DNA of 64,000 bases from a phage, in the NCBI GenBank assembly GCA_012549035.1, contig GCA_012549035.1_4805.1. One strand, 5' to 3'. Positions 13,957 through 44,440 of the stretch are shown piece after piece. The notes beneath the pieces were generated by a model. The model had not been told where the DNA came from. It did not search any database and saw only the letters and a program-made list of their open reading frames with translations. How positions within the stretch are numbered: position 1 is the first letter of the stretch; every line of letters starts with the position of its first letter. Both the position numbers and the translations under genes were made by a program.

Positions 13957-14066
13957 CCACCCTCAAATAAGTATTGTGTATTATATCTAATGAAAAAAAC
14001 TTAGGCAAACAATAATTATGGTTTGAATATGTATAACAACCGATATAGCCGCGCCTTTATTAGTGT

Positions 14067-14346
14067 GATACGGATGATACGGATAAAATGAGGCGTATTT
14101 TTATCCGTATCGGTGTATAAGCCGCGCTATCACTGGTGTGCTACGGATGATACGGATGATACGGATACTTTTCATATATAAGAGTTTATAAAAAAAAATA
14201 AAATTAAATTATATATATAATTTTAAATTAATTTATTTGAATTCCTATATAGTACGGCGGCAACGCGTATCATCCGTATCATCCGTAAGATTCTTTTGAA
14301 AACAATAACTTACTTGATACGTATGATACGTCATTATACGTATAAA
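14067..14346. repeat. iteron-rich intergenic region A (9-bp GATGATACG-type units, AT-rich core)
   Basis: TACGGATGA x3 tandem at 14143-14168; GATACGGATGATACGGATA at 14067-14085; inverted copies TATCATCCG x2 at 14265-14293; AT-rich palindromic core 14170-14250. Confidence 0.7.
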
Positions 14347-14521: not shown

Positions 14522-15442
14522 TTAGTTCAGCTTGATTGCGGTGATCTGTCCGTAAACGGTAGATGTCAATGCCTCTGTGCATTGATAGTTTAGATACACG
14601 TTGCCAGGCGCGGCAAGAGTGATTATCTTTGTTGGAATATTGCCGCCGAAACGACCTGCAGCCCGAATGCCAGCTGACATCGTAAATGCATCATCCGTAA
14701 TATCTGAATCGCTTGTTGACAATTTGGCTGTAATTCCGGTATTCGCTTGAATTCCTGCTGTCGCGACAGTCAACTGACTTGCCGTCACAAGCCACTTTCC
14801 TGCAGGAAGGTTTAAGGTCGCCAGATTAACCAAAGTGGTTGGAGGATTGCTAACACTGTTCGTGGCACTCTGGACGGTGCTTTCCGCTGCGTTAAGCACA
14901 CCGGAACCATCAATTGATAGAGTTGTACCGACCTTTACGCCGCCTAAAGTAGATGCTGACGCAATCGGCAATGAGTATTGAGTAACGCTAATTGTACCGT
15001 CACCTGCGACGCTTATTCCGCTTCCTATTTTGACGCCGCCGAGAACAGAAGCCGTTGCCGCTGGTAACGTGTATTGGTTGCCGCTTGATTTGACCACTTT
15101 AACGGCGACAGCATTCTTTGACCCTCCAGACTCCATTCCTATAATCACTGCTTCTCCAAAAGCGATGGTGATTGTAGATGCAGTTAAACCAGTCTGCACG
15201 TCTGTTATGTTCATTTTGGGAACTGAAAGTGTCAGATTCGGCTTGCTGGTAGAATCGCCATCATTACCGATCATAAAGAATTGACCAACTGAATTGTATC
15301 CAGACGCCAATGGCGGACTCAATGGAACAATCAGGTTTTTATCGGATGTAAATTCTGAAACAATCGCCAAACCGTTAGCATATACAGCAGGCAATACTGG
15401 CGTTTGTCCAGATAGAGGAAACGTGCTGATTGGTATCGTCAT
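14522..15442 (-). CDS. fiber-like protein with tandem repeats
   Basis: Tandem repeat blocks TLPAATASVLGGVKIGSGISVAGDGTISV / SLPIASASTLGGVKVGTTLSIDGSGVLNA; track start is GTG at 15511, preferred ATG at 15442 with GAGGT upstream. Confidence 0.6.
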   Translation of the reverse strand: MTIPISTFPLSGQTPVLPAVYANGLAIVSEFTSDKNLIVPLSPPLASGYNSVGQFFMIGNDGDSTSKPNLTLSVPKMNITDVQTGLTASTITIAFGEAVIIGMESGGSKNAVAVKVVKSSGNQYTLPAATASVLGGVKIGSGISVAGDGTISVTQYSLPIASASTLGGVKVGTTLSIDGSGVLNAAESTVQSATNSVSNPPTTLVNLATLNLPAGKWLVTASQLTVATAGIQANTGITAKLSTSDSDITDDAFTMSAGIRAAGRFGGNIPTKIITLAAPGNVYLNYQCTEALTSTVYGQITAIKLN

Positions 15443-15449
15443 AATGACC

Positions 15450-16301
15450 TCAAATGATTGGTATTTTTCTGCACTTGCAGTGTATTGCCCATCCAGGAGG
15501 ACCGATGTCACCCTTTTTGAACTTCAATTCGCCGCCAACTTCCCATAGGCGCTTGTCATCAAGTTTGAATCTCATTCCGTCGACGTGTTCATGAGAGATT
15601 CGCGGCTCCTTTCCTGCTCCTGAGTGCGCCCACTCAAATTCTTCGACTCCATTCTGGCGCATCCTTTCATCGCTTAGAACGCAATACAATTTGCTTGTCT
15701 GGTCTTTAGCGATCAAGTCGACTCTCTTTGCAGAGAAGTGTTTTACGTTTCGCAATGCCGCCTGAATGCCTGACGTGCCTTGCTGGGCTGGGTCGGGAGA
15801 AGTCAGCGAAAGCATGACTGCTTCGTACACTCTGTTGTGAATATCCTCGCCGACCTTAGTCACTAGAGTCGTGTTAAACTTCTCGCTTGTTCTAAGAGTG
15901 TTCTCAACGAATTTGTTATATGTGGCCTTTGGCGCTTCTATGCCTGCGGACTTAAGGCTTGCGAATGTAGCAGAAGTGGCACCCTTTTCGACCGATTTGA
16001 TAAAATCAGCGGCAATCTTCGACCCAACACGTGCAAACGCCTTTGCCCATTTCAGTTGCAGCCGTTTCATAAGGGTCTGGAATGTCGAATCAGCAGAGTC
16101 TTGCGCAAAAAACTTCTGCACCTGCTTCTTGTCAAGCCATTCTGAAATGCCTGCCTGATAGTCATCAATCATCGCATAGCAAAGACCTTTCATCTCACGA
16201 CGATAGGCCATCGCGATTGCGTTGGATGGGATTATCGGACTGCCGCGCCCGACTCTATCGGGTAAGCGGCGTTCACGTTTTTTCGAAGCTTTAAAAGCCA
16301 T
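15450..16301 (-). CDS. head morphogenesis protein (SPP1 gp7 / Mu F-like)
   Basis: Downstream of portal; C-terminal block HEHVDGMRFKLDD...GPPGWAIHCKCR typical of this family; start taken at ATG 16301 (MAFKASKK). Confidence 0.65.
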   Translation of the reverse strand: MAFKASKKRERRLPDRVGRGSPIIPSNAIAMAYRREMKGLCYAMIDDYQAGISEWLDKKQVQKFFAQDSADSTFQTLMKRLQLKWAKAFARVGSKIAADFIKSVEKGATSATFASLKSAGIEAPKATYNKFVENTLRTSEKFNTTLVTKVGEDIHNRVYEAVMLSLTSPDPAQQGTSGIQAALRNVKHFSAKRVDLIAKDQTSKLYCVLSDERMRQNGVEEFEWAHSGAGKEPRISHEHVDGMRFKLDDKRLWEVGGELKFKKGDIGPPGWAIHCKCRKIPII

Positions 16302-16302
16302 A

Positions 16303-18678
16303 TCAACCTTGCTTCGGTGAATTAGTAGGATTGTTGAGTGCTCCATATGCTTGAGAGCAATCACCCTTCAACCACTCCTTGAATGAGTTTACATCCAATT
16401 CGTGGATTGAGTCAAATCCATTCCAACCGTTACCAAATGATGCTTGATAAGCTTCTTTCGCTTCTTCTGCTGAATCGAATCCAAGCATACATTTGTGTTC
16501 ATCAAACTCGCCAGAGTAGTTATCGTTTTGGTTCACGATAAAAACTTTCGGTGACTTCAGATTTGGACCCACAAAGCAGTCGACTTCATCGCCGTCCGCG
16601 CCCTTGGTGCCCTTGATGAATCCGTAGTGGTGCGGCATCTTGACTGCCCATTCACCGTCAAGGCTGTTTCCTCTACGGATGCTGTTGCGAGGATTCTCAA
16701 TCCCAAGAATCAGTCCATGCAACTTCATCTTAGGTAATGATGCTGCGTCCATCTTTCCAACGTTGTGTCGTAAGTTTACGACATTACCTTTGACGCTTGG
16801 AAGGGTAGACGGTTGCACCGACCGTGAATCTTTTTGAGGGTCAAAATCCACATCCTGACCTTCTTTCAGGTAGTAATCCGCAATACCCTCCAGACCTTCT
16901 TTCAACTGCGTTAGGACATCAACCTGATGGCTTGATTCGTCATCGGTATCGTCCATGTTGATTTCAACAGGTGCTCTGTCAGGGTTTTCCGCCAACTCAC
17001 CACGCGCGGCACCCTCTGGCATAATACCTGTTTCGCTATAGAACTGGCCGCCCATCTTAACGACATCAGCTTTCGCCTGTTCAATATCGGCCTTACCTTG
17101 CAAGACTTCACCAGCAGACTTGCCAAGCAATGCCATATTCTCTGGAGACATCCCTGGGGTTTCTTCTGCTGCGTCTTCCGGCAGACGGTTGTAGCCGCTG
17201 TTTTTGTCGTCTTTGATGCGGTCGCGCTCTTCATCAGGAGAAATGACGCCAGCATCAATAAGAGTTTTGCCAGTGTTGGCTCGCTTATCATTGATTTCTG
17301 CAAGTTGAGTAGCAGTAAGTGAGCCAACTGGTTCCCATGCAACCTTAACATCGACATCCACCCCTTCTGATTTGAGAAGGATTTTGTAATGGCGGTCGAG
17401 AATTTTTGTCAGGTCATGCTGCTGGCACGTTTCCAACTCTTCGTGATAGCTGACCATCTCGAATTCACCAGTGGCATTAAAGCCTTTTGGCGAAGTCCCA
17501 AGCAGTTTGGTCGACGGAACTTTTGCGATTGCGGCCACCAGCTGGTACTGGTTCATGATGATGCTGTCGAAGTCTGACAAGTTGATGTCGAACTGGTCCA
17601 TCTCTTCTTTTTGGCCAAGCACTTTGACTGCATAGTTGTCGCGATACTTGATCCACATCATCAGACGTTCTGCAAAAGACCGCTCATTGGCAATCGCCTT
17701 GTCAACGTCGGTCCGCAGCGTGGTTGTACGCTTGGACATCGCCAGCAATGGCGCTTCGTTAGCGGTACGTTCAGCGGCATAGATGCGTTCATAAATCTGC
17801 TGAGTCAGAGGAATGCCGCCGTAAATATAAGTTGGCTTGAGAATATCAGCTGGCTCATCATTGCGCAAGATGATGAGGTGACTGCGATGATAACGTTGTC
17901 CGCTGATCACCCAGTATTCTGGATCATAGAAGTGCTGTGATGCAGGGTCTGCGGTATTTTCAGACGTCAAAAATGGCATCATCCAATAAGGGTCAACCTG
18001 AATGATTCCCTTGTAAGACCCCTTTGTCACACCATCAATGTTAAAAGGCTTGCTGTAATATTCTGGGTCATCGCTACGCACATCAAATATGATGACGCGG
18101 ATACCAAAAATATTTTTGAATCGTTCGGCTTCAACTAAGTGCTCTTTGATATTAAATTCTTTATCAATTTGCTTTAGGCGTTCGCTTGCCTGCACTGACA
18201 ATTCTGACTCAGAACTGGATTTGACTTCCCAACCTTTACGGACCGCATCGCGGCCTACCATGGAACACGCCTTGTTCACCAGCCAATGCTGTGCGATGAT
18301 GGCACAAGCTTGATAGCCGATGAATGACTGTGACAAATACCAGTTTTGAAGTTGAATAGGTACTGTGTATGGGTTGACCTGCCCTTCTGAACTGATGTTC
18401 TTCAAGGCATTATCCATAACTTTTTTGGATACTGTTGCGGAATCGACTGAACGACCTTTTATGATAGCAACACCGTCGCCATTAATATCAGGCTCATATA
18501 AAGGGAAGTCATCAACCGTTTTAAAGGTCGGTCGATTGCTTTCAGTCTTTTCCCAGCGTTGACCGCTGCCGCGCCTTTCAAGGCGTTCAAACGGTGCCAA
18601 TGGGTCGCCTGGCGGCATCTCCGCTGGTTCGGCTTCTGGTTGCGTCTTCTCCCAGAGTTTTATGCCAAGAATTTTCAT
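16303..18678 (-). CDS. portal protein with C-terminal inorganic pyrophosphatase-like domain
   Basis: Position between terminase and head morphogenesis genes; C-terminal ~130 aa carry YGFIKGTKGADGDEVDCFV and AEEAKEAYQASF, resembling family I PPase signature; track start is TTG 18711, ATG 18678 has an AGGTGG RBS. Confidence 0.7.
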   Translation of the reverse strand: MKILGIKLWEKTQPEAEPAEMPPGDPLAPFERLERRGSGQRWEKTESNRPTFKTVDDFPLYEPDINGDGVAIIKGRSVDSATVSKKVMDNALKNISSEGQVNPYTVPIQLQNWYLSQSFIGYQACAIIAQHWLVNKACSMVGRDAVRKGWEVKSSSESELSVQASERLKQIDKEFNIKEHLVEAERFKNIFGIRVIIFDVRSDDPEYYSKPFNIDGVTKGSYKGIIQVDPYWMMPFLTSENTADPASQHFYDPEYWVISGQRYHRSHLIILRNDEPADILKPTYIYGGIPLTQQIYERIYAAERTANEAPLLAMSKRTTTLRTDVDKAIANERSFAERLMMWIKYRDNYAVKVLGQKEEMDQFDINLSDFDSIIMNQYQLVAAIAKVPSTKLLGTSPKGFNATGEFEMVSYHEELETCQQHDLTKILDRHYKILLKSEGVDVDVKVAWEPVGSLTATQLAEINDKRANTGKTLIDAGVISPDEERDRIKDDKNSGYNRLPEDAAEETPGMSPENMALLGKSAGEVLQGKADIEQAKADVVKMGGQFYSETGIMPEGAARGELAENPDRAPVEINMDDTDDESSHQVDVLTQLKEGLEGIADYYLKEGQDVDFDPQKDSRSVQPSTLPSVKGNVVNLRHNVGKMDAASLPKMKLHGLILGIENPRNSIRRGNSLDGEWAVKMPHHYGFIKGTKGADGDEVDCFVGPNLKSPKVFIVNQNDNYSGEFDEHKCMLGFDSAEEAKEAYQASFGNGWNGFDSIHELDVNSFKEWLKGDCSQAYGALNNPTNSPKQG

Positions 18679-18840
18679 TGTTAACGCCACCTGACAGTGA
18701 AAGGGAATCAATCTATATTATAAATATTCATGTGTTTGTAAGCAAATGATATGTATGGTGATCATAAATAGTTCATAAAATATTTTGCTTTTGTATCATT
18801 TTGAGTTATATTTTAGTTAACCAAACGAAAGGAGATTGAA

Positions 18841-19496: not shown

Positions 19497-20957
19497 TTAA
19501 AGGTTAGAGAAGAAGCCGGATGCTGCAACAATTGGTTTCATCAATGCCATGATTGCGGCGTCCGCTTTGTTAGGCGATTTAACTCCACGCTTTGCCATAT
19601 CCTTTTTCGATTCAACTTTGAACTTACCAAGAACAGACGTGTCTTTGCGCGGCGCTGACATCTCAAAAAGAAACGTCTCAATTTCTTCCGCAGACCAAGC
19701 AGGAATCCCAAGTTCTGGAATGCCGTCTGTGTCGATGGAAATCAACTCATCGGTCGGATATACGGCTTGCCCTGTCGCATACTCATATGTCTTTCTGAAT
19801 CGTTCGGCAATCTCAGTCCATTTTTGCGCTTTTATGTTTGCGAAATGGTCTTTATTGAGTATTTCAACGTGTGGTAACTCAAGGAAAACGTCATCAGGAT
19901 CATCAACAGCACCTTGCGCGTTGAACGCATTAAATTCGATTCTTGGGAATGTTGGATTTTCATGTATTGCATACTCATTGAGCTCATCAAATTTTGAACC
20001 AGCAAATGCACCGACACCGATGGCGTCATAGGTAATTGACGCGCCGAATGTCAATGCGTCTTTCCAAACTCCGCTTGCGGACTTAAGCAATTCATCTTCC
20101 AGACCTTCCCATGTCTTGATGCCACGTAATACGTTGCCTGTGACGAATGCAGTGGCGTTAAGGTCGTCGCCATCGTCCGCTACGTCAAAGCCTATACGGT
20201 TAGACCCTGACAAACTCCATCCCAGCGTAGGGTGCTTGTGGAGGTTAAGCGCAGCCTTAACGAATGCGCGGTTGATTACAGATTTGTCGCCGCCAGTCTT
20301 CGGCACGCCGCCATAAACGTGCTCTGCCTTTTTCGGGTCACGCTCGTACATGCCTGCAATAACGTCCAGCATTGTTTGCGACAAAAATGGATTGTCTTGC
20401 CAGTTTATCTTTTTAACAATGGCATTCTTCGGCGGTCGCATAACAAAGTTTTGGTAGACGAAATCGGCCTCTTCATCAGGGTTAAAGATGATCCATATTT
20501 CGGACCCTTCTTTACGGATTGTCGGCTCAATAATGTCCCACTGTTCTTCAGTAAGCGCGTGCGCTTCTTCCAGCCAAAGGACGTCAACACCTTCTGTTGA
20601 TTTAATTTCATCAACGTTACGTGCGATACCGTAAAATAGAAATTCAGATTTAGTTCTTTTATGTTCAATAGAGTTCTTTAATAAATTGAACTCATCTTTG
20701 AAATCAGAAATCTCTATTTTGTCTTTTAATAGAGTATATACAGATTCAGAAATCTTGTTCTGGAATTGTCGAACGCAAAGGAATTTTAATTTGAAGTTTG
20801 CCGCCAAATAAATAGCAAAACCAGCGGCATCGTGCGATTTGGAAGATGCACGACCGCCGTATATTACTTTGTATCGCGCTTTTGTCTTCCAGACTTCTTT
20901 TAAAGCAGGATTCAACTGGTACATGACTTTCCAATTATGTGTTAATATTTTATTCAT
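19497..20957 (-). CDS. terL: terminase large subunit
   Basis: 486 aa; N-terminal ATPase block KVIYGGRASSKSHDAAGF (Walker A-like) and overall large-terminase architecture. Confidence 0.85.
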   Translation of the reverse strand: MNKILTHNWKVMYQLNPALKEVWKTKARYKVIYGGRASSKSHDAAGFAIYLAANFKLKFLCVRQFQNKISESVYTLLKDKIEISDFKDEFNLLKNSIEHKRTKSEFLFYGIARNVDEIKSTEGVDVLWLEEAHALTEEQWDIIEPTIRKEGSEIWIIFNPDEEADFVYQNFVMRPPKNAIVKKINWQDNPFLSQTMLDVIAGMYERDPKKAEHVYGGVPKTGGDKSVINRAFVKAALNLHKHPTLGWSLSGSNRIGFDVADDGDDLNATAFVTGNVLRGIKTWEGLEDELLKSASGVWKDALTFGASITYDAIGVGAFAGSKFDELNEYAIHENPTFPRIEFNAFNAQGAVDDPDDVFLELPHVEILNKDHFANIKAQKWTEIAERFRKTYEYATGQAVYPTDELISIDTDGIPELGIPAWSAEEIETFLFEMSAPRKDTSVLGKFKVESKKDMAKRGVKSPNKADAAIMALMKPIVAASGFFSNL

Positions 20958-26778: not shown

Positions 26779-26995
26779 CCTGCCGCGCAGGAGTGTACTG
26801 CAAAATTCCTGTGGGTACAAAATAGTACGGTACTGTCTAGGGCTTTTTCTTTGAAAAGTTAGTGGACCAAATGTGTCGTATTTTGATTAGTGTACCGCAA
26901 ATTTCATCAAGTACCAAAACGCACCAAAAGACCCATGCCATAAAAACCACACGAACGCAATAATCAATCGCCGTTACAGTTTCCAGCGTTACAAT

Positions 26996-27056
26996 TCGAA
27001 AGCGAATGATTCGACGCATAATAATATGAAGCACAATGATTCGAAAGCGAATGATT
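26996..27056. repeat. direct repeat ATTCGAAAGCGAATGATT x2
   Basis: Two copies about 44 bp apart inside the 600-bp non-coding gap. Confidence 0.6.
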
Positions 27057-27373
27057 GTGTGTAGGATAATATCGGTGGGGATTATTCGAGATGCATGTAA
27101 TTTCGCATGCGTACTATTTTCGGGCGAAGGGTCGGCATATTCCTCGTTTTAGTTCGGAACGAAGGGAAAGTTTTGCGCCTTTATAAAACAACGACTTACG
27201 CGACCCGCCCTAACGGTCCGATATAGGTGTCTATATAAAACAAGGACTTACTCGATGTTCTCCATTTAACGTAATACCTGTTATGCGAACTAAGGCGCAT
27301 CTCGATGAAGATTATGCGACGAAGAAGGGAAGGATAAAGGAGTTTTTTGCGGAGAAGCGCATCGAGATAGGGA

Positions 27374-27401
27374 CGAAGAAAAGCCGCGACTAAGCGCGGC
27401 C
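27374..27401 (-). terminator. intrinsic terminator (minus strand)
   Basis: On minus strand GCCGCG-cttagt-CGCGGC followed by TTTTCTTCG, 26 nt after stop of 27427..27636. Confidence 0.55.
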
Positions 27402-27426
27402 TATTAGTAACGGTGGGTGATTATAA

Positions 27427-27636
27427 TTAAAGGAATAATCCGGCGCGTTTAATTTGCCCAAGGACGTTATCGCGACGGCGACGCATAACCGCGTATTTAA
27501 CTTCTTCTTCGTATCCCCAGCCGCCGATGGATAACATCGCGTTCATATTATCGCATAATTCCTTAAGCTCGCGAAACATATCGATTACGGCGGTGCGATG
27601 GGCGCGCGCGTTAAGAGAGTTATTCATATTAGTCAT
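27427..27636 (-). CDS. hypothetical protein (69 aa)
   Basis: RBS AAGGAG; second gene of a two-gene minus-strand operon; CpG-rich codon usage. Confidence 0.55.
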   Translation of the reverse strand: MTNMNNSLNARAHRTAVIDMFRELKELCDNMNAMLSIGGWGYEEEVKYAVMRRRRDNVLGQIKRAGLFL

Positions 27637-27646
27637 TTTCTTCTCC

Positions 27647-27937
27647 TTAAAGGCTTACGATTTTAAAGTAAGTTACTTCGCCGCCGAGTTGCGGTACAGC
27701 GATATATTCGCCGCCGATTTCGGTGATCGTATAAACGAATCCGTTAATCGTTACGCGGTAGGATACGATGTCCTCGTCGCGATACTTGTAAAGGTCGAGG
27801 AAGTTGATCGGCTCATAAATAGACTCGATAATCGCGTCGACGTTAGAGAGATAAACGCTCTCTAAGGTTTCGCCAAATACGTTAGAGTTTTCGGAAGTTT
27901 CGACGCGAGCGGCGCGGATAGCGGATAAAGTAATCAT
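27647..27937 (-). CDS. hypothetical protein (96 aa)
   Basis: RBS AGGAG 6 nt upstream of ATG; preceded by promoter cassette and leader hairpin. Confidence 0.6.
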   Translation of the reverse strand: MITLSAIRAARVETSENSNVFGETLESVYLSNVDAIIESIYEPINFLDLYKYRDEDIVSYRVTINGFVYTITEIGGEYIAVPQLGGEVTYFKIVSL

Positions 27938-27961
27938 AATATTCTCCTAGTTAGTCGGGAG

Positions 27962-27982
27962 GGTAGCGACCTATTCGCTACC
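27962..27982 (-). promoter_or_regulatory. conserved 5'-UTR hairpin (cassette copy 1)
   Basis: On minus strand GGTAGCGA-atagg-TCGCTACC flanked by GGGA...TCCC; covaries with copy at 28524..28544. Confidence 0.45.
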
Positions 27983-28004
27983 TCATCCCCTCTCGATATA
28001 AAAC

Positions 28005-28033
28005 ATTATAGCCTTAGTGTACGAATAAGTAAA
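28005..28033 (-). promoter_or_regulatory. promoter cassette copy 1 (TTTACT-N17-TATAAT)
   Basis: Minus-strand GCTTTACTTATTCGTACACTAAGGCTATAATGTTTTATATCGAGAGGGG; near-identical to the 28473 and 28403 copies. Confidence 0.5.
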
Positions 28034-28043
28034 GCACTTTTCG

Positions 28044-28346
28044 TTATTTTGCGATAAAATATTTGTAAGCCTTATCGCCTTCTACGTCGATATACTCGAC
28101 GATAATTAATGCTTCGCCGCGCGGCGTAACCGTCTCGATAAGGGTAACGGCTTCGTCGTCGGTCTTCGCGAAGCGGATGGCGCTACGTTCGGCGTACTTG
28201 ATATCGTCGAAGGAAAGACCGACGAAGGCGACCGCGCGGACCTTAATGGCGCTAGATTCTAGTTCGGCGTTAACGGCGGCGATAAGAGAGCGAACGGTTA
28301 AACGGTCTTCGTCGTAAGTAAGGATGGAAGAGATTAAAGTGGTCAT
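28044..28346 (-). CDS. hypothetical protein (100 aa)
   Basis: ATG at 28346 with GGGAG-TTTTATT-ATG arrangement identical to neighbouring genes; track N-terminal TTG extension rejected. Confidence 0.55.
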   Translation of the reverse strand: MTTLISSILTYDEDRLTVRSLIAAVNAELESSAIKVRAVAFVGLSFDDIKYAERSAIRFAKTDDEAVTLIETVTPRGEALIIVEYIDVEGDKAYKYFIAK

Positions 28347-28402
28347 AATAAAACTCCCGATGCTAGTGGAAGGAAGGGCCATCGCCCGTCTCGATATAAA
28401 CA

Positions 28403-28430
28403 AGTATACGTGAGTGTACGAAGAAGTAAA
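28403..28430 (-). promoter_or_regulatory. promoter cassette copy 3 (TTTACT-N16-TATACT)
   Basis: Minus-strand CTTTACTTCTTCGTACACTCACGTATACTTGTTTATATCGAGACGGG. Confidence 0.45.
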
Positions 28431-28472
28431 GAAAAAGATAAATAATTTATCTCATTTTTATCGAAAAAGTGC

Positions 28473-28500
28473 TTTACTTTTTTCTACACTATATTATAAT
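28473..28500 (+). promoter_or_regulatory. promoter cassette copy 2 (TTTACT-N16-TATAAT)
   Basis: GCTTTACTTTTTTCTACACTATATTATAATGTACTCATATCGGGACGGG upstream of gene 28570. Confidence 0.5.
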
Positions 28501-28523
28501 GTACTCATATCGGGACGGGATGA

Positions 28524-28544
28524 GTTGACGAATAGGTCGTTAAC
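28524..28544 (+). promoter_or_regulatory. conserved 5'-UTR hairpin (cassette copy 2)
   Basis: GTTGACGA-atagg-TCGTTAAC with compensatory changes relative to the 27962 copy; followed by CTCCC-AAACT-AGGAG-ATG. Confidence 0.45.
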
Positions 28545-28569
28545 ACTGCTCCCAAACTAGGAGTTTATT

Positions 28570-29208
28570 ATGGCCAGTTTGAATCGTTTCTCCACCAGCG
28601 GCGACGTAATCGCAACCAAGACAGCCGACCTCGTTGCATTCTATAACGAAAATTCAGGCTCAAAGCCGATTAAAAAATTCGCGGACCGCCGGACCGCCGA
28701 GACTCGCGTAATCGCGTTAATCGAGTCCTTAAACGCGCTCGATGAGCCGTCCAACGAATCGCCCATCCCAGACGTGAAGGCGCGTGAGGAAGTGTCCAGC
28801 GATGTAAAAACGCATAAGGCGCGTGCGGTCGTTAAAAAGGCTGAGCCGACCCAGGAAGAACTCGACGCGATGAGTGATGAAGAGTATGAAGCCTTCGTTA
28901 AGAGCAGCCTTAATAGCGCTCCGGTTGGCGCTCCGGTTGGCGCGGATAAAATTGCCAGCCCTTCCCATCGCCGTTCGAATAGCGAAGGTATTGCAAAAAG
29001 TTGGGATAACAAGGAAGTGGCGCAAAAGCGTCTCACCCGTAACGGCGTTATGGTCGAGGGTGTAGGCGAGTTCAAATCGGTCCGCGTAGCGTTCGCCGCG
29101 CTGGGATTACCGGATAGCAAGCACATTCGCTTCCGCATGAAGCTTAAAGAAGCTGGACGCTTGAACTTCGAGTTCGGCAACAAGTCCTACACCTTCCAGA
29201 TTATCTAA
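28570..29208 (+). CDS. hypothetical protein (212 aa)
   Basis: RBS AGGAG; CpG-rich codon usage; Ala/Pro-rich linker APVGAPVGA; terminator directly downstream. Confidence 0.65.
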   Translation: MASLNRFSTSGDVIATKTADLVAFYNENSGSKPIKKFADRRTAETRVIALIESLNALDEPSNESPIPDVKAREEVSSDVKTHKARAVVKKAEPTQEELDAMSDEEYEAFVKSSLNSAPVGAPVGADKIASPSHRRSNSEGIAKSWDNKEVAQKRLTRNGVMVEGVGEFKSVRVAFAALGLPDSKHIRFRMKLKEAGRLNFEFGNKSYTFQII

Positions 29209-29215
29209 TCGAATG

Positions 29216-29237
29216 GCGGCCCTTCGGGGTCGCTTTT
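29216..29237 (+). terminator. intrinsic terminator
   Basis: GCGGCCC-ttcg-GGGTCGC followed by TTTT; mirror image of the stem at 26752. Confidence 0.6.
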
Positions 29238-29258
29238 CATAGTGCAAATTGGTGGCTT

Positions 29259-29522
29259 ATGAATACGCTTATTCTCATCGCTACGTTGTCCATCGGAAGT
29301 GGTCGCACCTTATCCCTTTATGATCATAGTGCAAATTGCGCTTACCCAACGCGCGTTGCGGCGATAGTTAATAGTGCAAATCGAATGCTATTCGAGACTT
29401 GTTGGCGGGTCGATAACGAGAAAGGGCGCATCGTCTTAGGTTATAGTGCAAATCTGCTGGTGGAGTCGTTCGACTGGACGGCGGAAGGTCGTAAATTGTT
29501 ACGTAAAGTGACTAAAAGATGA
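29259..29522 (+). CDS. possible small protein (87 aa) overlapping repeat array
   Basis: ORF with island-type codon usage; three in-frame motif copies each encoding SAN; may be non-coding. Confidence 0.35.
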   Translation: MNTLILIATLSIGSGRTLSLYDHSANCAYPTRVAAIVNSANRMLFETCWRVDNEKGRIVLGYSANLLVESFDWTAEGRKLLRKVTKR

Positions 29523-29583
29523 CTTATAATAATACACTTTCTAACGCGTTTATGGCTGCAGCCTTCCCCGTCGTATTACCGAT

Positions 29584-29624
29584 GGCCCTAGAAGTGGAGA
29601 AAATGTGTTCTAGGGCCGTTTTAT
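29584..29624 (+). terminator. terminator-like inverted repeat
   Basis: GGCCCTAGAA-N14-TTCTAGGGCC followed by GTTTTAT. Confidence 0.45.
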
Positions 29625-29636
29625 AGTGCAAATTGG

Positions 29637-30110
29637 CTAGTGGCGGGAGAATTGCTCACCCTCTTTGGCCGCCTCTCCAAAATCCTTGTAGAAATCGTCC
29701 ATGGAACGGCCCATTTTACTATTGCCATTCTCATCAATCATCGTGATGCCGTAGATGATATTCAGTTCACGAATGGCATTAAGCTTGGCTGATGCCGCGA
29801 CTTCTGGATCACGCACAAGCTTCACTAAATTGTGAATGGAACTCTTTACACTCCACAATTCCTTCAATGGCATCTCTTCCATACGCTTTTTGTAGCGCAT
29901 CTTGTAGTACGGATTGCGTTGCGTGCAGAGGATTCGCTGGCCAGTGTAGTTATCGGTCGCAACCTCCATGCCAAATACTAGTGCAAAAGCTGCGCGCATG
30001 TCATGGCCCTGAATAACAAGGTCAATGAACTCATCGAATAATGCCTGATTATGCTCTGCAAATCGCGGGTCTTCAAAGTCTTCAGGCATTGCTACATAAT
30101 CTTGACTCAT
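29637..30110 (-). CDS. hypothetical protein (157 aa), possible small terminase-like DNA-binding protein
   Basis: ATG at 30110 lies inside a motif copy; track TTG extension to 30305 rejected; weak resemblance to small-terminase N-terminal helix pattern, identity uncertain. Confidence 0.55.
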   Translation of the reverse strand: MSQDYVAMPEDFEDPRFAEHNQALFDEFIDLVIQGHDMRAAFALVFGMEVATDNYTGQRILCTQRNPYYKMRYKKRMEEMPLKELWSVKSSIHNLVKLVRDPEVAASAKLNAIRELNIIYGITMIDENGNSKMGRSMDDFYKDFGEAAKEGEQFSRH

Positions 30111-30338
30111 AGTGCAAATCCCATAGTGCAAATTAATAGTGTGAATTATACAATGATTGAACATTATATTCAAGTGCAGATTGATGTTCAAATTGGCTGT
30201 AAACGTACATAAATCATAGTGCTGAATGAATATCGGACCGTGGTGCGTGGTGTACTGTTTGATACGTATAAAAGAAATCCATCCCTTTCGCCGCTTGTTA
30301 TGCAAATCAATGACTTAGCCGCTGCTGGCTGGTTGAAG

Positions 30339-30612
30339 CGTATCATGACGTATCATCCGTATTGCCGCAAGTCTTTGTTTTTACTTATATCTTACGGATA
30401 ATACGTTAAATATATAAATTAACATAAGTATGAGGATGTAGAAAAAAATTAATTTAAATTAATTCAAAATGGAGTTAATTAATTTTTGAAATAATTCTGG
30501 TTACAATAAGGAAAAATGGCGTATCATCCGTATCATCCGTAAGATTCAGTGTACAAATCCAGGCGCGGCGCACCCTAGCGCCATGATACGGATAAAAACC
30601 TATCCGTAAGAG
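30339..30612. repeat. iteron-rich intergenic region B
   Basis: CGTATCAT(G/C) tandem units at 30339-30364 and 30519-30547; 29-bp segment GCGTATCATCCGTATCATCCGTAAGATTC identical to 14265-14293; AT-rich palindromes at 30410-30490; AATCCAGGCGCGGCGC x2. Confidence 0.7.
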
Positions 30613-30840
30613 TGTACGCTTCAAGCAAAGAATCCAGGCGCGGCGCGGCTTTCGCCACCACACACCACGGTTCACTCTCCAAAATCCGCACACTAAATTC
30701 CAAAATCCAATGCTCATACTCCAAAAATAAATCAAAATTTCCATTTTATTTATTATTTTCATCCACAATATCCTAAATTCTATCCGTATCAACCATGCCT
30801 CAACCCACCACTATTCACGCCACTCACTTCAAAATTTCCA

Positions 30841-30873
30841 TCGAAAACAACAAAAGGTCGCATAAAGCGACCC
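30841..30873 (-). terminator. intrinsic terminator ending the early operon
   Basis: On minus strand GGTCGC-tttat-GCGACC followed by TTTTGTTGTTTT, about 50 nt after stop of 30925..31464. Confidence 0.6.
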
Positions 30874-30924
30874 ATTGCACACATTCCATTATTCAAAACA
30901 CGTAAACGAGTGTTCTTTTATCCA

Positions 30925-31464
30925 CTATAATTTAGGCATCAATCCCTTTTCCGTTCTCCTTTTTATCTCGTCTTCTATCATTTTATTGGTTACTCTATAC
31001 CCAATCCTCTCCAATTCCAGCAATACTTCCTTTTGGTATTTTCTTATTTTTACGATGTCGACCGTATCCCTCCAATAAGATAATACCTTCTTAATGACTG
31101 ACTTTTCCATTTTATATCTGGCTGTCGTCATATATTTCATTTTGAAAATAGAGTTGATGGCATCCGTCTTTAACCATTCCTTTCTTAATTCAGGATGATC
31201 ATCCCAAAGAGCAATGGCGAACTCCTGCGGACTTTTGCACCTGCTTTGAAGCTCCTTTATGTAGTCGACCGTTTTCACTTTTCTATCTAAACGCTCGCGG
31301 CAAACGGTGCACTCTTCCTTGAGCAACCAATCGGCCTTCTTGTCAATTTGCAAAGTTGAATTACCATCCCTTTTATACCTGCCGCAAATGCTTATGCCTT
31401 CATCTTTTAAGAAGTAATGCAACTCTTTAGAGTATTTCGCTTTACGCCAAAAGCCTCCCATCAC
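30925..31464 (-). CDS. hypothetical Cys-rich protein (179 aa)
   Basis: Last gene of minus-strand early operon; CxxC-like pairs (CGRY...CTVC). Confidence 0.55.
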   Translation of the reverse strand: MMGGFWRKAKYSKELHYFLKDEGISICGRYKRDGNSTLQIDKKADWLLKEECTVCRERLDRKVKTVDYIKELQSRCKSPQEFAIALWDDHPELRKEWLKTDAINSIFKMKYMTTARYKMEKSVIKKVLSYWRDTVDIVKIRKYQKEVLLELERIGYRVTNKMIEDEIKRRTEKGLMPKL

Positions 31465-38057: not shown

Positions 38058-38705
38058 TTATCCTGTGGCCTGCATATTGCGTACATACTTCTGCTCTAAT
38101 GAATAGATGAAGTCGGCGACAGTCAATCCCTTCGTGTGCCATTCATACATGGTGAAGCCTGTATTCAGGAAATAGCCGCGCACCTTGTCCATCGCTTCAG
38201 CTTCCTCCATTGAAGCCATCAGCGCGGCGACGTTGTCATAAGAAGGCACAAATCCCTTCTTGCGTAGCGCATTGCGCAAATCTTTAGTTCTGAAGCCAAT
38301 CTTGCAAGGGTCATCGCGGCCCGTGGATGATGCAACCTTTGGAAGAGCAAGGAACTCTTTGAGGAACATTGCAATGTTCAAGTCGCCTGCATCATCAAGC
38401 TTCTGGATTCGGTTGCGACCGCGACCCTTGAATTCACTCGCACGAGGGTGAGCGCCAAAACAGTGCGCCCCTTCCAGTTTAGGGTCAATGATCATCACAT
38501 CTTTCCCAATGCGCAGCTCTACGTAGTAAAGATAAGACTCATCGACAAGCTTTGTGCGCTTGCAAGTGATTGAGTCCTTATCATAACCAAAGCCGCGCAA
38601 CACGGTTGAGATCATTCGGTTCATTTCTTCGCCGTGAACGTCACTTTCTTTGTTCAGTTCACCAAGATGTTGAAAGAATTTAGCGATGTTGATTGCTTTA
38701 TTCAT
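38058..38705 (-). CDS. hypothetical protein (215 aa)
   Basis: 1-nt overlap with helicase gene stop. Confidence 0.55.
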   Translation of the reverse strand: MNKAINIAKFFQHLGELNKESDVHGEEMNRMISTVLRGFGYDKDSITCKRTKLVDESYLYYVELRIGKDVMIIDPKLEGAHCFGAHPRASEFKGRGRNRIQKLDDAGDLNIAMFLKEFLALPKVASSTGRDDPCKIGFRTKDLRNALRKKGFVPSYDNVAALMASMEEAEAMDKVRGYFLNTGFTMYEWHTKGLTVADFIYSLEQKYVRNMQATG

Positions 38706-40375
38706 CAGAATTCATCCTTATCTCTTCCCAAAGAACGTTTACGCTCAATAACCTTCTTCAAGAATTCAATATCTTCAGGGTCAGACTCATCGCGGATAAG
38801 ATACGCTAAGATGGTCATCAAATCAGAAATGTATTCTCCTGCTTCATTCTTAATCAGCGGCGTAAAGTACCCGCGCTGGTTGCGATAGGTTGCAGGCTCA
38901 AAACCAAGCTTCGACATGTGCGGCGCAAGGGTACGAGAGAAAGGCGACTTGCCACACTTCGCTCTGAATCCCATAGCAATAGCGCCACTGGTGATGTGCC
39001 AGCGTCCGCTGTGATGTCGGTCATAAGGCGCGGTGATGACGACTTCAACAAGGTCGTTGTCGACCATCTCATCACGGATAACGCCGCGCGCACGTTCCAT
39101 TTCGTTCTTGCTGAACTCAGTAAGCATGCGAGATGTTTCACCAACAAACGCGTTATAGCCTGCTTCGCCGTGCTTCTCCATCCACGCAGCGCACTCAGCC
39201 ATAAGCTGCCAAACGTCTTCTTTCAAAGTGGAAAGGTCGGCTTGGAAGTCCTTAGACCAGTTCGGTTGCCCGTCCTTGTCAGCGAGTTGGCCAACAAAGA
39301 TAGGGTACACACGACGGTTGCCCGTGTCGTCACGCTGCATGCCTGCGTATTCGTTGCCGTCCATGATCGCAATCCACTGGCGTGGTTTAACCTGCGTATC
39401 TTCAAATTTGAAGTCCAGGTCATCTTCCGTCTTAGTCAGGAATGCTTTCATGTTTTCGATGTCGGCCTTTTTAAAGCCTGTCATCTCGCCAACGTTCGCG
39501 ATAATTGAGCGACCCGTGATAGCTCGCAAGAACGGGTTGAAGTTTTGCGCGGCTAAGTTCAACGGAATCGGTGTTGCGTGGCGGTCGTTCATAATAGCTT
39601 CGCAAAGCAGCTTGCTAAAATAACTCTTCCCTGCGTTCTGGCCGCCGATGAGCGCAATGGAGATTGGCGCTTGACAGCCAGGGTTGGTCAGGCGGTTGTA
39701 GAGCGATAGCCAAAAATACACACCGATTTGTCGGTTTAACTCTGTATCGAACGGTCGGAATAGCTCGATAAGGTATTTCTCGATGCGCGCAGTACCGTCC
39801 CATTCAGGCAGCTTCTTGTAGAAGAAGTCCATCAGGTCGTCGCGCTGATAACGCATGGCCCATTCCTTATAGGATTGAGCGACCTGACGTGAGTTTGGGT
39901 TGGACAACCCTGCTGCGTCGACAGCGGCAACTATCTCTGTGACTTCCAAGGTACGGTCAGTGAATGTTTCGCCGCGATGGTCGACTAAGCGCCCACGAAA
40001 AGTATCTTTGTGAGGGAATGGAACAACGCCACTTCCCTTATCAAACAACGCGTCGAACACCGCATAACGGTTCATGTCACTCGTCCGGTCTGCCTGTAGA
40101 ACGAAGTCATCTTTAGTCGGCTTGTAGTGAGGGAACTTGATTACCTGAAGTGAGGCGAGCAAGCGTGCTCTTTCAACCAAGTCTTCTTCACCGTAGCATT
40201 CCATGCGCTCTGAATCTTTTTCAACGGCTTTATGTTGAAGGCTGATTTTAGCTCTGGTGCCTTGCTGCTCTGCTGCCTGCATTTCTTCCGAAACACCTGC
40301 ATCTTGAATTTCGTCAAAGATTGCACCAAATTCATCACCTGTATCCTCTGGAAGATTGTCATTATTAATTGACAT
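38705..40375 (-). CDS. SF3-type NTPase / helicase (VirE / D5-like primase-associated)
   Basis: 556 aa; Walker A IALIGGQNAGKS and downstream architecture typical of phage/plasmid primase C-terminal helicase domains. Confidence 0.7.
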   Translation of the reverse strand: MSINNDNLPEDTGDEFGAIFDEIQDAGVSEEMQAAEQQGTRAKISLQHKAVEKDSERMECYGEEDLVERARLLASLQVIKFPHYKPTKDDFVLQADRTSDMNRYAVFDALFDKGSGVVPFPHKDTFRGRLVDHRGETFTDRTLEVTEIVAAVDAAGLSNPNSRQVAQSYKEWAMRYQRDDLMDFFYKKLPEWDGTARIEKYLIELFRPFDTELNRQIGVYFWLSLYNRLTNPGCQAPISIALIGGQNAGKSYFSKLLCEAIMNDRHATPIPLNLAAQNFNPFLRAITGRSIIANVGEMTGFKKADIENMKAFLTKTEDDLDFKFEDTQVKPRQWIAIMDGNEYAGMQRDDTGNRRVYPIFVGQLADKDGQPNWSKDFQADLSTLKEDVWQLMAECAAWMEKHGEAGYNAFVGETSRMLTEFSKNEMERARGVIRDEMVDNDLVEVVITAPYDRHHSGRWHITSGAIAMGFRAKCGKSPFSRTLAPHMSKLGFEPATYRNQRGYFTPLIKNEAGEYISDLMTILAYLIRDESDPEDIEFLKKVIERKRSLGRDKDEF

Positions 40376-41686: not shown

Positions 41687-42769
41687 CTATTTTATGCCAC
41701 CTGCACGACGATTTATCATGTCAAGTTGATTCTCAATATAAGGCATGACGATTGCTTCAACAAAAGCAGTCCAACCTTTCTTGCCTTCCCCTTTCCGGTG
41801 ACAGTCGTGGGCGCAACCGAACACAAATTCATGTTCTGCACCAGGGATAGGGCCGCGAAAGTAAGCGCCATACGGGTCGCCGTTGGTGTGCTCTTCACCC
41901 CAAGGACAGATTATGCGGCACTTGCCTGACATATTCTCGATGACGTCGCCATCAGACCCTTCACCCATCTTGTTGCGCGCTAGAATTTGCTGGGCTATTT
42001 TATACCAAACGGCATCATACTTGTATTCATCGACGTCAATTTGAATCTCACGCTTTTGCGGCATGACGACGTGAAAGCCAAATGCCTGACAAATGTCTTC
42101 GATGGTGTAGCGCAAGGAGTAGTCTGCATGGACAAGTCGGCAGCGGAACGGGTCGCCGTTCTCATCGACATATTTATAGGGGCCGTCGTGAGTCACACGC
42201 TTGTTATTGATGCACCCAGGAACACGGCCCACGCGCGTTACGTCTTTAATCGTGTTGTCGCCGCCCTTCTTGAGTACCATGTTAACGAAAGACCCAAGGA
42301 ACGCTTTGAACTGAATAAGATGGTCAATCGGTTCTTTAAAGAAGTACCAAAGCTGGTGGTTGTTCGGTGAAGTCTCGACGATGACAGTCGGCTTCAGTCG
42401 CTCAAAAAAGAATTCCAAATCTAAATCGCCTTTGGACCCTTTACCGTGACCGATGTCGTCGACCATCATCGCCATACCGTGACCAAAGGCCGACTCTGTA
42501 CGCCAGTATCGCATCTCACCCGTCTTTGGGTTGGGAGACTTACGCATTGAACTGATGCAAGCATAGCCGTTTTGGTGCTGCATGAGCGGCTTGCCCAACT
42601 TCCAAGGCTTAGGCCAGAAGCTGCTGTTAATCTTCTTGCCGCGCTCGTCAGTCTGCACCGTTGCTTCAGGAGCAAACACCGTCATGACGCGCTCATCTTC
42701 TGGGATGCCTCTTTGGAGTTCTGTTAAAAACTCTTCAATTATTTTTGCTTCTTCTCTTAAACTAGCCAT
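41687..42769 (-). CDS. putative DNA primase (primase-polymerase-like) with C-terminal zinc-binding motif
   Basis: 360 aa; motif VETSPNNHQLWYFF resembles the sGxGxH motif of archaeo-eukaryotic-type primases; C-terminal C/H cluster; upstream of SF3 helicase. Confidence 0.5.
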   Translation of the reverse strand: MASLREEAKIIEEFLTELQRGIPEDERVMTVFAPEATVQTDERGKKINSSFWPKPWKLGKPLMQHQNGYACISSMRKSPNPKTGEMRYWRTESAFGHGMAMMVDDIGHGKGSKGDLDLEFFFERLKPTVIVETSPNNHQLWYFFKEPIDHLIQFKAFLGSFVNMVLKKGGDNTIKDVTRVGRVPGCINNKRVTHDGPYKYVDENGDPFRCRLVHADYSLRYTIEDICQAFGFHVVMPQKREIQIDVDEYKYDAVWYKIAQQILARNKMGEGSDGDVIENMSGKCRIICPWGEEHTNGDPYGAYFRGPIPGAEHEFVFGCAHDCHRKGEGKKGWTAFVEAIVMPYIENQLDMINRRAGGIK

Positions 42770-42929: not shown

Positions 42930-43256
42930 ATGAACGAAAAAGAGACGAAGCAACGCGAACGTGCAACACACGTCGGAATCGTTGAGTCCTTCCTTAATAC
43001 AAGATTGAATTCAAGCCTAACAATCATGCGATTCCTGGGTCAACCAGACAGAATCAAATTTATTTTTGCCGCAAATCCGGTATCGCTGTACATCCCTGTT
43101 GAATCCATGGCGTACTTAGTGCGCGACGAGAAAGGATGGAAGATACCAAACACAACTGTTTTCTTCAGCCATGTTGATGGTGAGATGTTTGAACGAAAAG
43201 AAGATTGCCATTTTATTCCAGTATATCTGGACCTTGAAAGCGTAGTGGAGTTATAA
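42930..43256 (+). CDS. hypothetical protein (108 aa)
   Basis: First gene of plus-strand replication module. Confidence 0.55.
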   Translation: MNEKETKQRERATHVGIVESFLNTRLNSSLTIMRFLGQPDRIKFIFAANPVSLYIPVESMAYLVRDEKGWKIPNTTVFFSHVDGEMFERKEDCHFIPVYLDLESVVEL

Positions 43257-44440
43257 TGAACATTCCAGAATTTAATGATGAGCCAGTGATTCAGTTTAAC
43301 GCGCAACAAATCGACGCCATCGAGAAAGCCGTTGCATGGTACAAGCGATTGCAGGACGGTAAAACGACGAAGCGCGTGTTTTTCATCGCTGGCTATGCAG
43401 GAACTGGTAAAACCTCTATTGCTCGCGAGATTGTGCGCCGTTGTGTCGGTGAGTATGGAGCTATCTATATTGCGCCGACCGGAAAGGCTGCAAGCCGATT
43501 AAAGCAAAAAGGCTGTCGTGGCGCTAAGACCCTTCACCAGTTCATCTATAACGTGCGCGGCGTAAATGACGACAATGAGCCAATCTTTTCGAGAAAGTCA
43601 AAGCTGGATGAAAGGCCGCACCTTGTTGTACTCGATGAAGCGTCGATGGTTGGCGAGTGGGACACAGAGCGCCTTCTTGATCACCGCATCCCTGTCCTGG
43701 CATTAGGCGACATTGGACAAGTCCCTCCGGTAAAAGCCGCCGCCTACTTTACTGAAGATGCCGTTGACGTACTGTTAACAGAAATCATGCGGCAAGGGAA
43801 AGAGTCCAATATAATCCGCGCCTCCTTCTTCGTGCGCCAAGGCAACCGCCTTCCTCCGCGTGAATACGATGACGTCAAAGTATTGGCAGAATCGCCGCGC
43901 GTTACTGCATTGAAGAAATTCATGGGCGAAGATGATCAAATTATTTGCTCCTATAATAGCACCAAAGATAAATGGAATTCATTATTACGGCAAGTGAGCG
44001 GACGTATAACGCCAATGCCAGGAATCGGCGAGAAAGTTATTTGCACCTTCAACCAGCACGGGCCAGGATTCTGTAATGGCGAGCAAGGGATTGTTATTAG
44101 CTATGAGCCAGTGCCGGACTTTGAAAGGGATGAAGATGAGTCGAATGAAATAATGTATGTCAACTTGCGTTCATTGACTGATGGTAAAGATATAAAGGTA
44201 AAGATTAATCCTCTTTCCTTCTCTACTGATCAGGAAGTGCGCAAAGAAGCGCAACGTGCTGTTGGCGGGATGGACTACGGCTATGTCATCACGGTGCACA
44301 AATCGCAAGGCAGCGAGTGGGACAATGTGTGCGTGCTGGAAGAAATCTTGCGCGGCGTTCCGTACTCCAAGATGATGTACACCGCTATCACCCGTGCTAA
44401 GAAGAATCTGACCGTGTACCGTGATTTGAAAGCGCGTTAA
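43256..44440 (+). CDS. SF1 DNA helicase (Dda / RecD-like)
   Basis: 394 aa; Walker A FIAGYAGTGKTS, DEAS box VVLDEASMV, and C-terminal ITVHKSQGSEWD motif. Confidence 0.75.
   Translation: MNIPEFNDEPVIQFNAQQIDAIEKAVAWYKRLQDGKTTKRVFFIAGYAGTGKTSIAREIVRRCVGEYGAIYIAPTGKAASRLKQKGCRGAKTLHQFIYNVRGVNDDNEPIFSRKSKLDERPHLVVLDEASMVGEWDTERLLDHRIPVLALGDIGQVPPVKAAAYFTEDAVDVLLTEIMRQGKESNIIRASFFVRQGNRLPPREYDDVKVLAESPRVTALKKFMGEDDQIICSYNSTKDKWNSLLRQVSGRITPMPGIGEKVICTFNQHGPGFCNGEQGIVISYEPVPDFERDEDESNEIMYVNLRSLTDGKDIKVKINPLSFSTDQEVRKEAQRAVGGMDYGYVITVHKSQGSEWDNVCVLEEILRGVPYSKMMYTAITRAKKNLTVYRDLKAR

Follow-up and report, generated by a model that had tools for sequence, protein, structure and literature searches.

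Paired repeat elements and a candidate packaging-initiation site at the predicted genome end of a Wifcevirus phage

Two related repeat elements among the terminase and head genes

We analyzed a stretch of phage DNA of 64,000 nucleotides, hereafter the window, and in particular an intergenic region, region B, upstream of the gene for the small terminase subunit (terS). Twenty-nine phage records in GenBank have matches to region B and its surroundings, and every one of them is from an Escherichia or Shigella phage assigned to Wifcevirus. RCIP0319 is the best match, with 98% identity over positions 30100–30950, and on sequence similarity the source phage is an E. coli Wifcevirus. The terS gene (29637–30110, minus strand) lies downstream of region B and starts 360 nucleotides from the predicted packaging cut at 30470. 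Its product of 157 amino acids matches the solved TerS decamer of the Pbunavirus E217 (PDB 7UXE; E=9e-33), and the orthologue in phage Mansfield, gp002, is annotated as terminase small subunit. Other genes that bear on the analysis encode TerL (19497–20957), the portal (16303–18711, minus strand), a VapE-like SF3 NTPase/helicase (38705–40375), a RepB-like primase (RepB_primase; 41687–42769) and an SF1 helicase (43256–44440). Residues ~660–790 of the portal form a C-terminal extension matching domains of large DarB-like and other virion-injected proteins, and the portal of one relative (L030) carries Pfam InPase.

A first-pass annotation had described region B as the second copy of an iteron-like, AT-rich element. 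The other copy, element A, sits 16 kb away among the head genes. The alignment of the two bears out the description, with local scores of 117 (direct) and 145 (inverted) compared with 27 ± 4 for shuffled sequences. The element is quasi-palindromic. In both copies, repeat units follow one another head to tail every 9 bp in short arrays, which occur in either orientation around an AT-rich core (97 nucleotides and 84% AT in A, 113 nucleotides and 83% AT in B), so that the clustered short repeats adjoining an AT-rich element that characterize iteron origins are present in each. The iteron repeat CGTATCAT has 12 matches in the window where 1.78 are expected, a number reached by none of 100 shuffles, and eleven of the twelve fall in A and B (six at 14074–14330 and five at 30339–30590). 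The shorter core ATCCGTA is found 22 times compared with 5.1 expected, including 8 matches in A and 7 in B.

The remaining repeats that had been proposed for region B fared unequally. The GC-rich 16-mer AATCCAGGCGCGGCGC indeed occurs exactly twice, at 30556 and 30631 (0.07 expected), and both copies are part of a tandem unit of ~75 nucleotides composed of ATCCGTAAGA, GTGTAC and a GC box. The palindromes AATTAATTT are confined to A and B, but their significance is borderline, since 2 of 100 shuffles reach six copies; in B they form a perfect 11-nucleotide inverted repeat (30444–30454 and 30477–30487). Three copies of (C/T)TCCAAAAT had also been reported. The region holds only two exact copies, and the total for the window is reached in 16 of 100 shuffles; of the claimed repeats, these CCAAAAT ones alone are no more frequent than chance would give.

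The AT-rich core of element B occupies 30407–30519 and contains the predicted packaging cut. This cut, where the left physical end of the genome and the beginning of the direct terminal repeat (DTR) are predicted, is placed between 30470 and 30471 by homology to the ends of relatives, at the plus-strand junction AAAAT/GGAGTT (the slash marks the cut), or in a longer reading AAAAT/GGAGTTAATT. The genome runs leftwards from 30470 on the minus strand. The arms of the perfect inverted repeat, AAAAATTAATT and AATTAATTTTT (30444–30487 in all), are separated by a 22-nucleotide spacer with the cut, in the middle of the core. On the outer side, array R1 (CGTATCATC, 2.5 units with a 9-bp period; 30520–30544, plus strand) lies 50 nucleotides outside the terminus. 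It is followed by GTGTAC with GC box 1 (30548–30571, plus strand), arrays R2 and R3 (30583–30611), which consist of the inverted unit ATGATACGGATAA and the direct unit CTATCCGTAAGA, and GC box 2 (30631–30646, plus strand), which belongs to the second copy of the tandem unit. Within the terminal repeat are array L1 (30392–30406, minus strand), formed by 1.5 degenerate, inverted units of TTACGGATAATACGT, and array L2 (GCGTATCATGACGTATCATCCGTAT; 30338–30362, plus strand). An outer inverted repeat encloses all of these, with its left arm ACCGTGGTGCGTGGTG (30237–30252) being 94% complementary to its right arm CACCACACACCACGGT (30656–30671).

Element A (14048–14345) lies between a head-fiber-like gene (14522–15511, minus strand) and the prohead protease gene (12538–13956, minus strand). 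The order on the minus strand is portal, MuF-like head protein, head-fiber-like gene, element A, prohead protease, cement-like protein and major capsid protein. Its arrays are at 14065–14086 (minus), 14101–14112 (plus), 14141–14168 (minus), 14266–14290 (plus) and 14314–14343 (minus), its AT core spans 14169–14265, and GC motifs are present at 14048 and 14121. The GGAG cut context specific to B is absent from A, and none of the record starts examined opens at A or gives any sign of its cleavage. Region A is 94–99% identical across 29 of 29 records and is better conserved than B. Every genome examined carries a full A paralogue, so that the element is not limited to one site per genome unit.

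Both copies had been noted to lie upstream of minus-strand transcription units, which holds, as each has an intrinsic-terminator-like hairpin on one side and, on the other, a strong sigma-70-like promoter. In the case of B, the hairpin (30855–30873, minus strand) ends the upstream, early minus-strand operon and the promoter TTGAAC-17-TATAAT (30163–30191, minus strand) precedes terS. Downstream of A, the promoter TTGCCT-17-TATAAT (13980–14008, minus strand) precedes the prohead protease operon, and equivalent promoters follow element A in relatives. Separately, we observed seven copies of ATAGTGCAAAT (TGCACTAT on the minus strand) at window positions 29239–30133, all on one strand, compared with 2.3 expected. 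These copies flank terS, two of them directly at its start codon, and GCACTAT copies are kept just upstream of the terS ATG in two relatives (L026 and L028). The role of this motif may be that of an operator, a leader or a promoter-like element.

Mapped genome ends and conservation across the junction

Termini have been determined in relatives of this phage and were placed in the window by homology. The Mansfield record opens at a direct terminal repeat of 3,673 bp predicted by PhageTerm (PMC6753283). The deposited sequences of WFC and WFH include exact terminal repeats, of 3,784 bp in the former and 3,701 bp in the latter, given in print as 'about 3.7 kb' (PMC6563267). All three records share a first base, homologous to window position 30470, and have terS from position 361. 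Because they begin at this homologue within the AT core, we take region B to be the concatemer junction and left DTR end. A physical terminus therefore lies inside the element by homology for region B in Mansfield, WFC and WFH, and likewise for its counterparts in the phages Kyle, MTx and JG024 described below.

The right boundary of the DTR maps to window position 26927 in WFH and Mansfield but to 26846 in WFC, 81 nucleotides apart in homologous coordinates. Following the mapping from WFH and Mansfield, the DTR of the present phage would extend over 26927–30470 (3544 nucleotides, minus strand). Arrays of 9-mers of the type seen in A and B were sought at this right boundary (26927 or 26846) and none are there, and a candidate right-boundary motif, GATTYARTGTAC, had no significance. 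Several other sequences recur in this part of the genome. The motif CAGTACACTAATCA is located 33–36 nucleotides beyond the right DTR boundary in WFH, Mansfield and Kyle. AGTGTAC is present nine times in the window compared with 3.9 expected, and six of these sites are on the plus strand in or adjoining the DTR (26792, 26889, 28016, 28413, 30548 and 30611), with pairs just outside both DTR boundaries. A motif of ~45 nucleotides, TCTCGATATAAA...AGTGTACGAA.AAGTAAAG, appears twice inside the DTR (~27990–28035 and ~28385–28430), and the two copies may be promoters of plus-strand small genes.

We compared 12 Wifcevirus genomes on both sides of the junction as a phylogenetic footprint. The cut junction is exact in 11 of the 12, with a single mismatch in the remaining one. 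On the DTR side (30210–30470) mean column conservation is 0.95 and 215 of 261 columns are invariant, whereas on the outer side (30471–30930) the mean is 0.51 and at least four sequence types are present. The break in conservation falls within ~10 nucleotides of the terminus. Outside the terminus, three elements are invariant or nearly so, namely the GGAGTT-ATT sequence of the cut site, an array of ATCCGTATCA (+44 to +66) and CCAG-CGCGGC; inverted GATACG units also survive in this divergent half. Array R1 is invariant across all Wifcevirus sequence types. The GC box 1 core CCAG-CGCGGC is kept in all types as well as in L028, a relative with 45% TerS identity, and both arms of the outer inverted repeat are retained in most types. 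The sequence-specific repeat shared by A and B, which the first-pass annotation had proposed, is thus kept in all 12 genomes despite diverged surrounding DNA. As an observation in its own right, the unique right genome end is a hot spot of mosaicism, where at least four unrelated sequence types occur and the small annotated ORFs differ.

The paired elements in other lineages

A search of IMG/VR with TerS returned close Wifcevirus relatives only. Relatives beyond the genus were found by their TerS and protease homologues, with the distant ones coming from a protein database and GenBank phage records. In every lineage examined the same two-copy layout is present, with a repeat motif that is particular to the lineage and common to its own A and B. 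Beyond Wifcevirus, a sister copy A is present in four lineages, namely Kylevirus, Myosmarvirus, Pbunavirus and one unclassified contig. The Logan contig SRR26188688_3650, with a TerS 70% identical, has ACGTATCA/GATGCGGAT arrays in its B and A and an identical AATTAACTCC/ATTTTGAA site (again divided at the cut). Among the other relatives, the motif is TTATCCGCAAG in L030, the 8-bp tandem TTATCCGC in L032, TTATCCGT in L027 and TTCCGTATC in L028, where the GC box is retained.

In Pantoea phage Kyle (Kylevirus), the record has a repeat of 3,603 bp with terS at 357, and A and B both carry GGAATAACC arrays around nearly identical AT cores. Serratia phage MTx (Myosmarvirus) has ACTTTTCG arrays in both copies and a PhageTerm repeat of 3,566 bp, the left end of which is in the centre of B. 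In the Pbunavirus JG024, where both copies contain GTAATTTGG arrays, a long-read study placed the starts of 36 of its 161 reads at 59,376 ± 5 and proposed a pac site there (PMC10913387). This position is 616 nucleotides upstream of terS, inside element B of JG024. The records of Pa193, Ab27, Ab29 and Pa204 place terS at 616–618, which implies the same opening base. In MTx and JG024 a gene for an SF3-type helicase/primase is located just upstream of B and ends ~370 nucleotides from the cut. Across four lineages the cut lies in the core of B, ~30–50 nucleotides from the outer array, while the sequence at the cut differs.

The two copies are far more similar to each other within a genome than to their counterparts in another genus. 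In a matrix of local alignments, A–B pairs within a genome score 104–195, whereas A–A, B–B and A–B pairs between genera score 23–68, which is at the level of shuffled sequences (31 ± 7). The sole cross-lineage similarity is in the close pair Wifcevirus/SRR26188688 (A–A 217, B–B 150). This pattern indicates that the two copies evolve together in each genome, and hence that they share a reader encoded by the phage, undergo recurrent gene conversion, or both. A repeat that is specific to the lineage and yet matches between A and B suggests that one trans-acting factor, encoded by the phage, serves the two copies. The phage proteins all diverge in parallel between lineages, and we found no informative mosaic genome that would separate TerS from the helicase/primase as the array binder.

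The orientation of the copies differs between lineages. The A–B alignment is best when inverted in the Wifcevirus lineage (145 compared with 117) but is clearly direct in Kyle, MTx and JG024; the inverted fit could mean that one copy has been inverted, or it could simply stem from the element being quasi-palindromic. We also noted that in most lineages the AT cores are bordered by inverted GCGGCA/TGCCGC sequences, at 2–8 per kb compared with a background of 1–1.7. These sequences are seen in A and B of the window, L026, L029, L030 and L033–L036 despite differing array motifs, and may represent a second, more conserved recognition element. Finally, two metagenomic contigs with TerS relatives (L028 and the P0006 contig from Logan) are 3,983 and 3,755 nucleotides long and start 350–520 nucleotides upstream of terS. 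They are approximately the size of the terminal repeat, which may therefore have assembled separately because of its double coverage.

Packaging, replication and comparison with known systems

We propose, with a confidence somewhat better than even, that region B is the packaging-initiation site of Wifcevirus, that is, the place in the concatemer junction which terminase recognizes and cleaves, and that the arrays of region B are bound by a phage-encoded protein. Such a sequence-specific protein would bind the 9-bp arrays (CGTATCATC) that flank the AT core of ~113 nucleotides in both orientations. TerS is the most likely reader of these arrays, presumably as the small terminase decamer whose gene is 360 nucleotides downstream. 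The large terminase would then cut inside the core at 30470/30471, and the cut would produce the left virion DNA end and the start of a DTR of ~3.5 kb running leftwards through terS. Element A, as a paralogue of the module, would probably be bound by the array-binding protein as well, but would not be a major site of cleavage.

The observations in support of the packaging-site proposal are the mapped termini, the layout shared across genera, the footprint, the fixed distance of the cut and the true TerS homologue that adjoins the site. A cut position that is fixed relative to the arrays, with a variable sequence at the cut itself, fits a nuclease positioned by array-bound proteins, and it is on this pattern, as in the pac sites of SPP1 or P1, that we read B as a terminase site. 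Several points count against the proposal. The second copy, A, is the better conserved of the two, which is unexpected for a packaging site. In addition, tandem periods of 8–9 bp do not match the helical turn predicted for a simple wrap around a TerS ring, and an AT core with inverted short repeats is also the classic appearance of a replication origin. Furthermore, appreciable binding of DNA by the TerS of the related phage E217 was not seen in vitro (PMC9611059).

The origin-like appearance suggests that A and B together might form a replication-origin module, with iteron-like arrays and an AT-rich unwinding element, bound by the SF3-type helicase and/or the RepB-like primase. The terminase might then cut within or beside origin B or take the origin complex as a landmark. 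This reading would account for the two copies, the cores of 83–84% AT and the inverted flanking arrays, and it fits the VapE-like and RepB_primase genes, the helicase/primase gene near the cut in MTx and JG024, a phage-encoded binder as implied by the lineage-specific motifs common to A and B, and the in vitro behaviour of E217 TerS. An origin role for the AT-rich pac region of SCUT-S1 was likewise raised, as a speculation, in the paper on that phage (PMC6521218). Nonetheless, we regard this reading as possible rather than probable. The cumulative GC skew of the window tracks gene orientation and provides no independent signal; its sign changes near 30 kb, where gene orientation changes too, so that skew is confounded as an indicator of an origin. 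In the Pbunavirus Banzai the reported skew minima (42,280 and 52,360) are away from terS at 58,218, and an origin alone leaves unexplained why the cut is fixed relative to the arrays in four lineages. The near-consensus promoter that follows each element also allows the arrays to be viewed as operator or enhancer sites for a phage transcription factor controlling the terS and prohead protease promoters, the terminus being coincidental. Each element is placed between a terminator-like hairpin and such a promoter, relatives have equivalent promoters after element A, and both downstream units comprise head or packaging genes. However, elements of ~300 nucleotides with 4–5 array clusters and an AT core of ~100 nucleotides are far larger than typical operators, the promoters are 60–170 nucleotides beyond the arrays, and a terminus at the centre of the core in four lineages would go unexplained. 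We consider regulation of this kind improbable as the function of the arrays.

It is very improbable that the repeats are clusters of host DnaA boxes, even though we take TTATCCGTA and TCATCCGTA to fit a relaxed DnaA-box consensus. The resemblance is seen in the window, L030 and L032, and the TTATCCGCA of relatives is one base from TTATCCACA. DnaA specificity is conserved across enterobacterial hosts, but the motif is wholly different in phages of such hosts (GGAATAACC in Kyle and ACTTTTCG in MTx), and we saw no cluster of the canonical TTATNCACA in A or B. The turnover of motifs between lineages (CGTATCATC, TTATCCGC, GGAATAACC, ACTTTTCG and GTAATTTGG) is a strong argument against this reading, which we rejected; co-evolving, lineage-specific motifs argue against any host factor with conserved specificity such as DnaA. 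Least credible is that region B contains a protein-coding gene, small or degenerated, or gives rise to a structured RNA. An ORF at 30475–30792 (minus strand, TTG start) does read through the region, and RCIP0319 has a hypothetical protein annotated there. As had been suspected, this ORF is most likely spurious: it has no significant family match, its translation has an odd composition rich in W, R and I, and the underlying DNA diverges among close relatives to types that cannot be aligned, with only the DNA motifs being fixed. Similarly, the 52-amino-acid ORF at 30188–30346 matched no protein family, and scans of the whole window gave no Rfam match at the gathering score and no tRNA. Conservation of the motifs and not of the ORF disfavours a degenerate gene, and the repeats are shared with related phages.

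Packaging and replication need not be separate functions. A tentative model, possible rather than probable, is that PB1-like phages (Pbunavirus, Wifcevirus, Kylevirus and Myosmarvirus) have a two-copy, origin-like module whose copies are kept identical within a genome by concerted evolution, one of them doubling as the terminase landmark. Replication initiation and end formation might then be coupled in one nucleoprotein complex, and A would be a second origin or else a crr-like or synapsis partner.

The terminal repeat of ~3.7 kb and its start position in Wifcevirus (GenBank and two papers) and the location of the Pbunavirus pac in an AT-rich region are already known. In the literature searched, we found no mention of the repeat grammar or arrays around the cut, of the paralogous copy A upstream of the prohead protease gene, or of the recurrence of this pair in Pbunavirus, Wifcevirus, Kylevirus and Myosmarvirus with motifs that co-vary and are specific to each lineage. 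Of the phages applied in Pseudomonas therapy, Pbunaviruses are among the most used, and the BASEL collection on E. coli K-12 now makes Wifceviruses available. Accounts in print of the genome ends of these phages contradict one another (PMC12390725). A defined cis-acting site with a clear repeat grammar would be a target for genome engineering, rebooting, and the prediction of termini from sequence alone, and region B allows a direct test of what the E217-type TerS, silent in vitro, recognizes. Copy A co-evolves with B in every lineage examined and must be under selection, yet it is needed by no current packaging model.

In P1 pac, hexamer repeats flank the cut. In SPP1, binding sites flank the cut at pac (PMC9611059). 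Like SPP1 pacL-pacC-pacR and P1 pac, region B has short repeated motifs, here putatively protein-binding, on either side of a cleavage region, adjoins the small-terminase gene, and marks the start of the packaging series. Unlike these systems, Wifcevirus, Kylevirus and Myosmarvirus have a fixed DTR of ~3.5 kb rather than headful permutation (their Pbunavirus relatives appear headful, like SPP1 and P1), the core is an AT-rich tract of ~110 nucleotides, and a second full copy is present 16 kb away. Moreover, TerS binding is putative here, and that of E217 did not bind DNA in vitro. The putative pac of Pbunavirus (position 59,376 of JG024 and the 'AT-rich region' of SCUT-S1) is equivalent to region B in position; it is also upstream of terS and has an AT core, lineage-specific arrays and a paralogue upstream of the prohead protease gene. 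However, the motif there is GTAATTTGG rather than CGTATCATC, and headful, permuted packaging is reported for that genus in place of terminal repeats.

Two further systems combine some of these features. In T7 the terminal repeat is flanked by short repeat arrays, and the secondary origins phiOL and phiOR are needed for maturation, which makes T7 a precedent for end-proximal elements that serve both replication and DNA maturation. The concatemer junction of T7 resembles region B in that the genome has a DTR and arrays of short repeats adjoin the repeat boundary. In contrast, the terminal repeat is ~20 times longer here, there is no promoter for a phage RNA polymerase, the arrays are at the left boundary only, and T7 has nothing of the same form as the paralogous internal copy A. 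Two-site origins are known from P4, where ori and crr are bound by the alpha primase-helicase, and from SPP1 (oriL and oriR). Like these, A and B are separate loci with the same direct and inverted iterons beside AT-rich DNA, in a phage that encodes an SF3/VapE-type helicase and a primase. They differ in that one copy coincides with the predicted packaging cut and in that the whole module of ~300 nucleotides evolves in concert, and the origin role that would complete the parallel is a putative one suggested by sequence.
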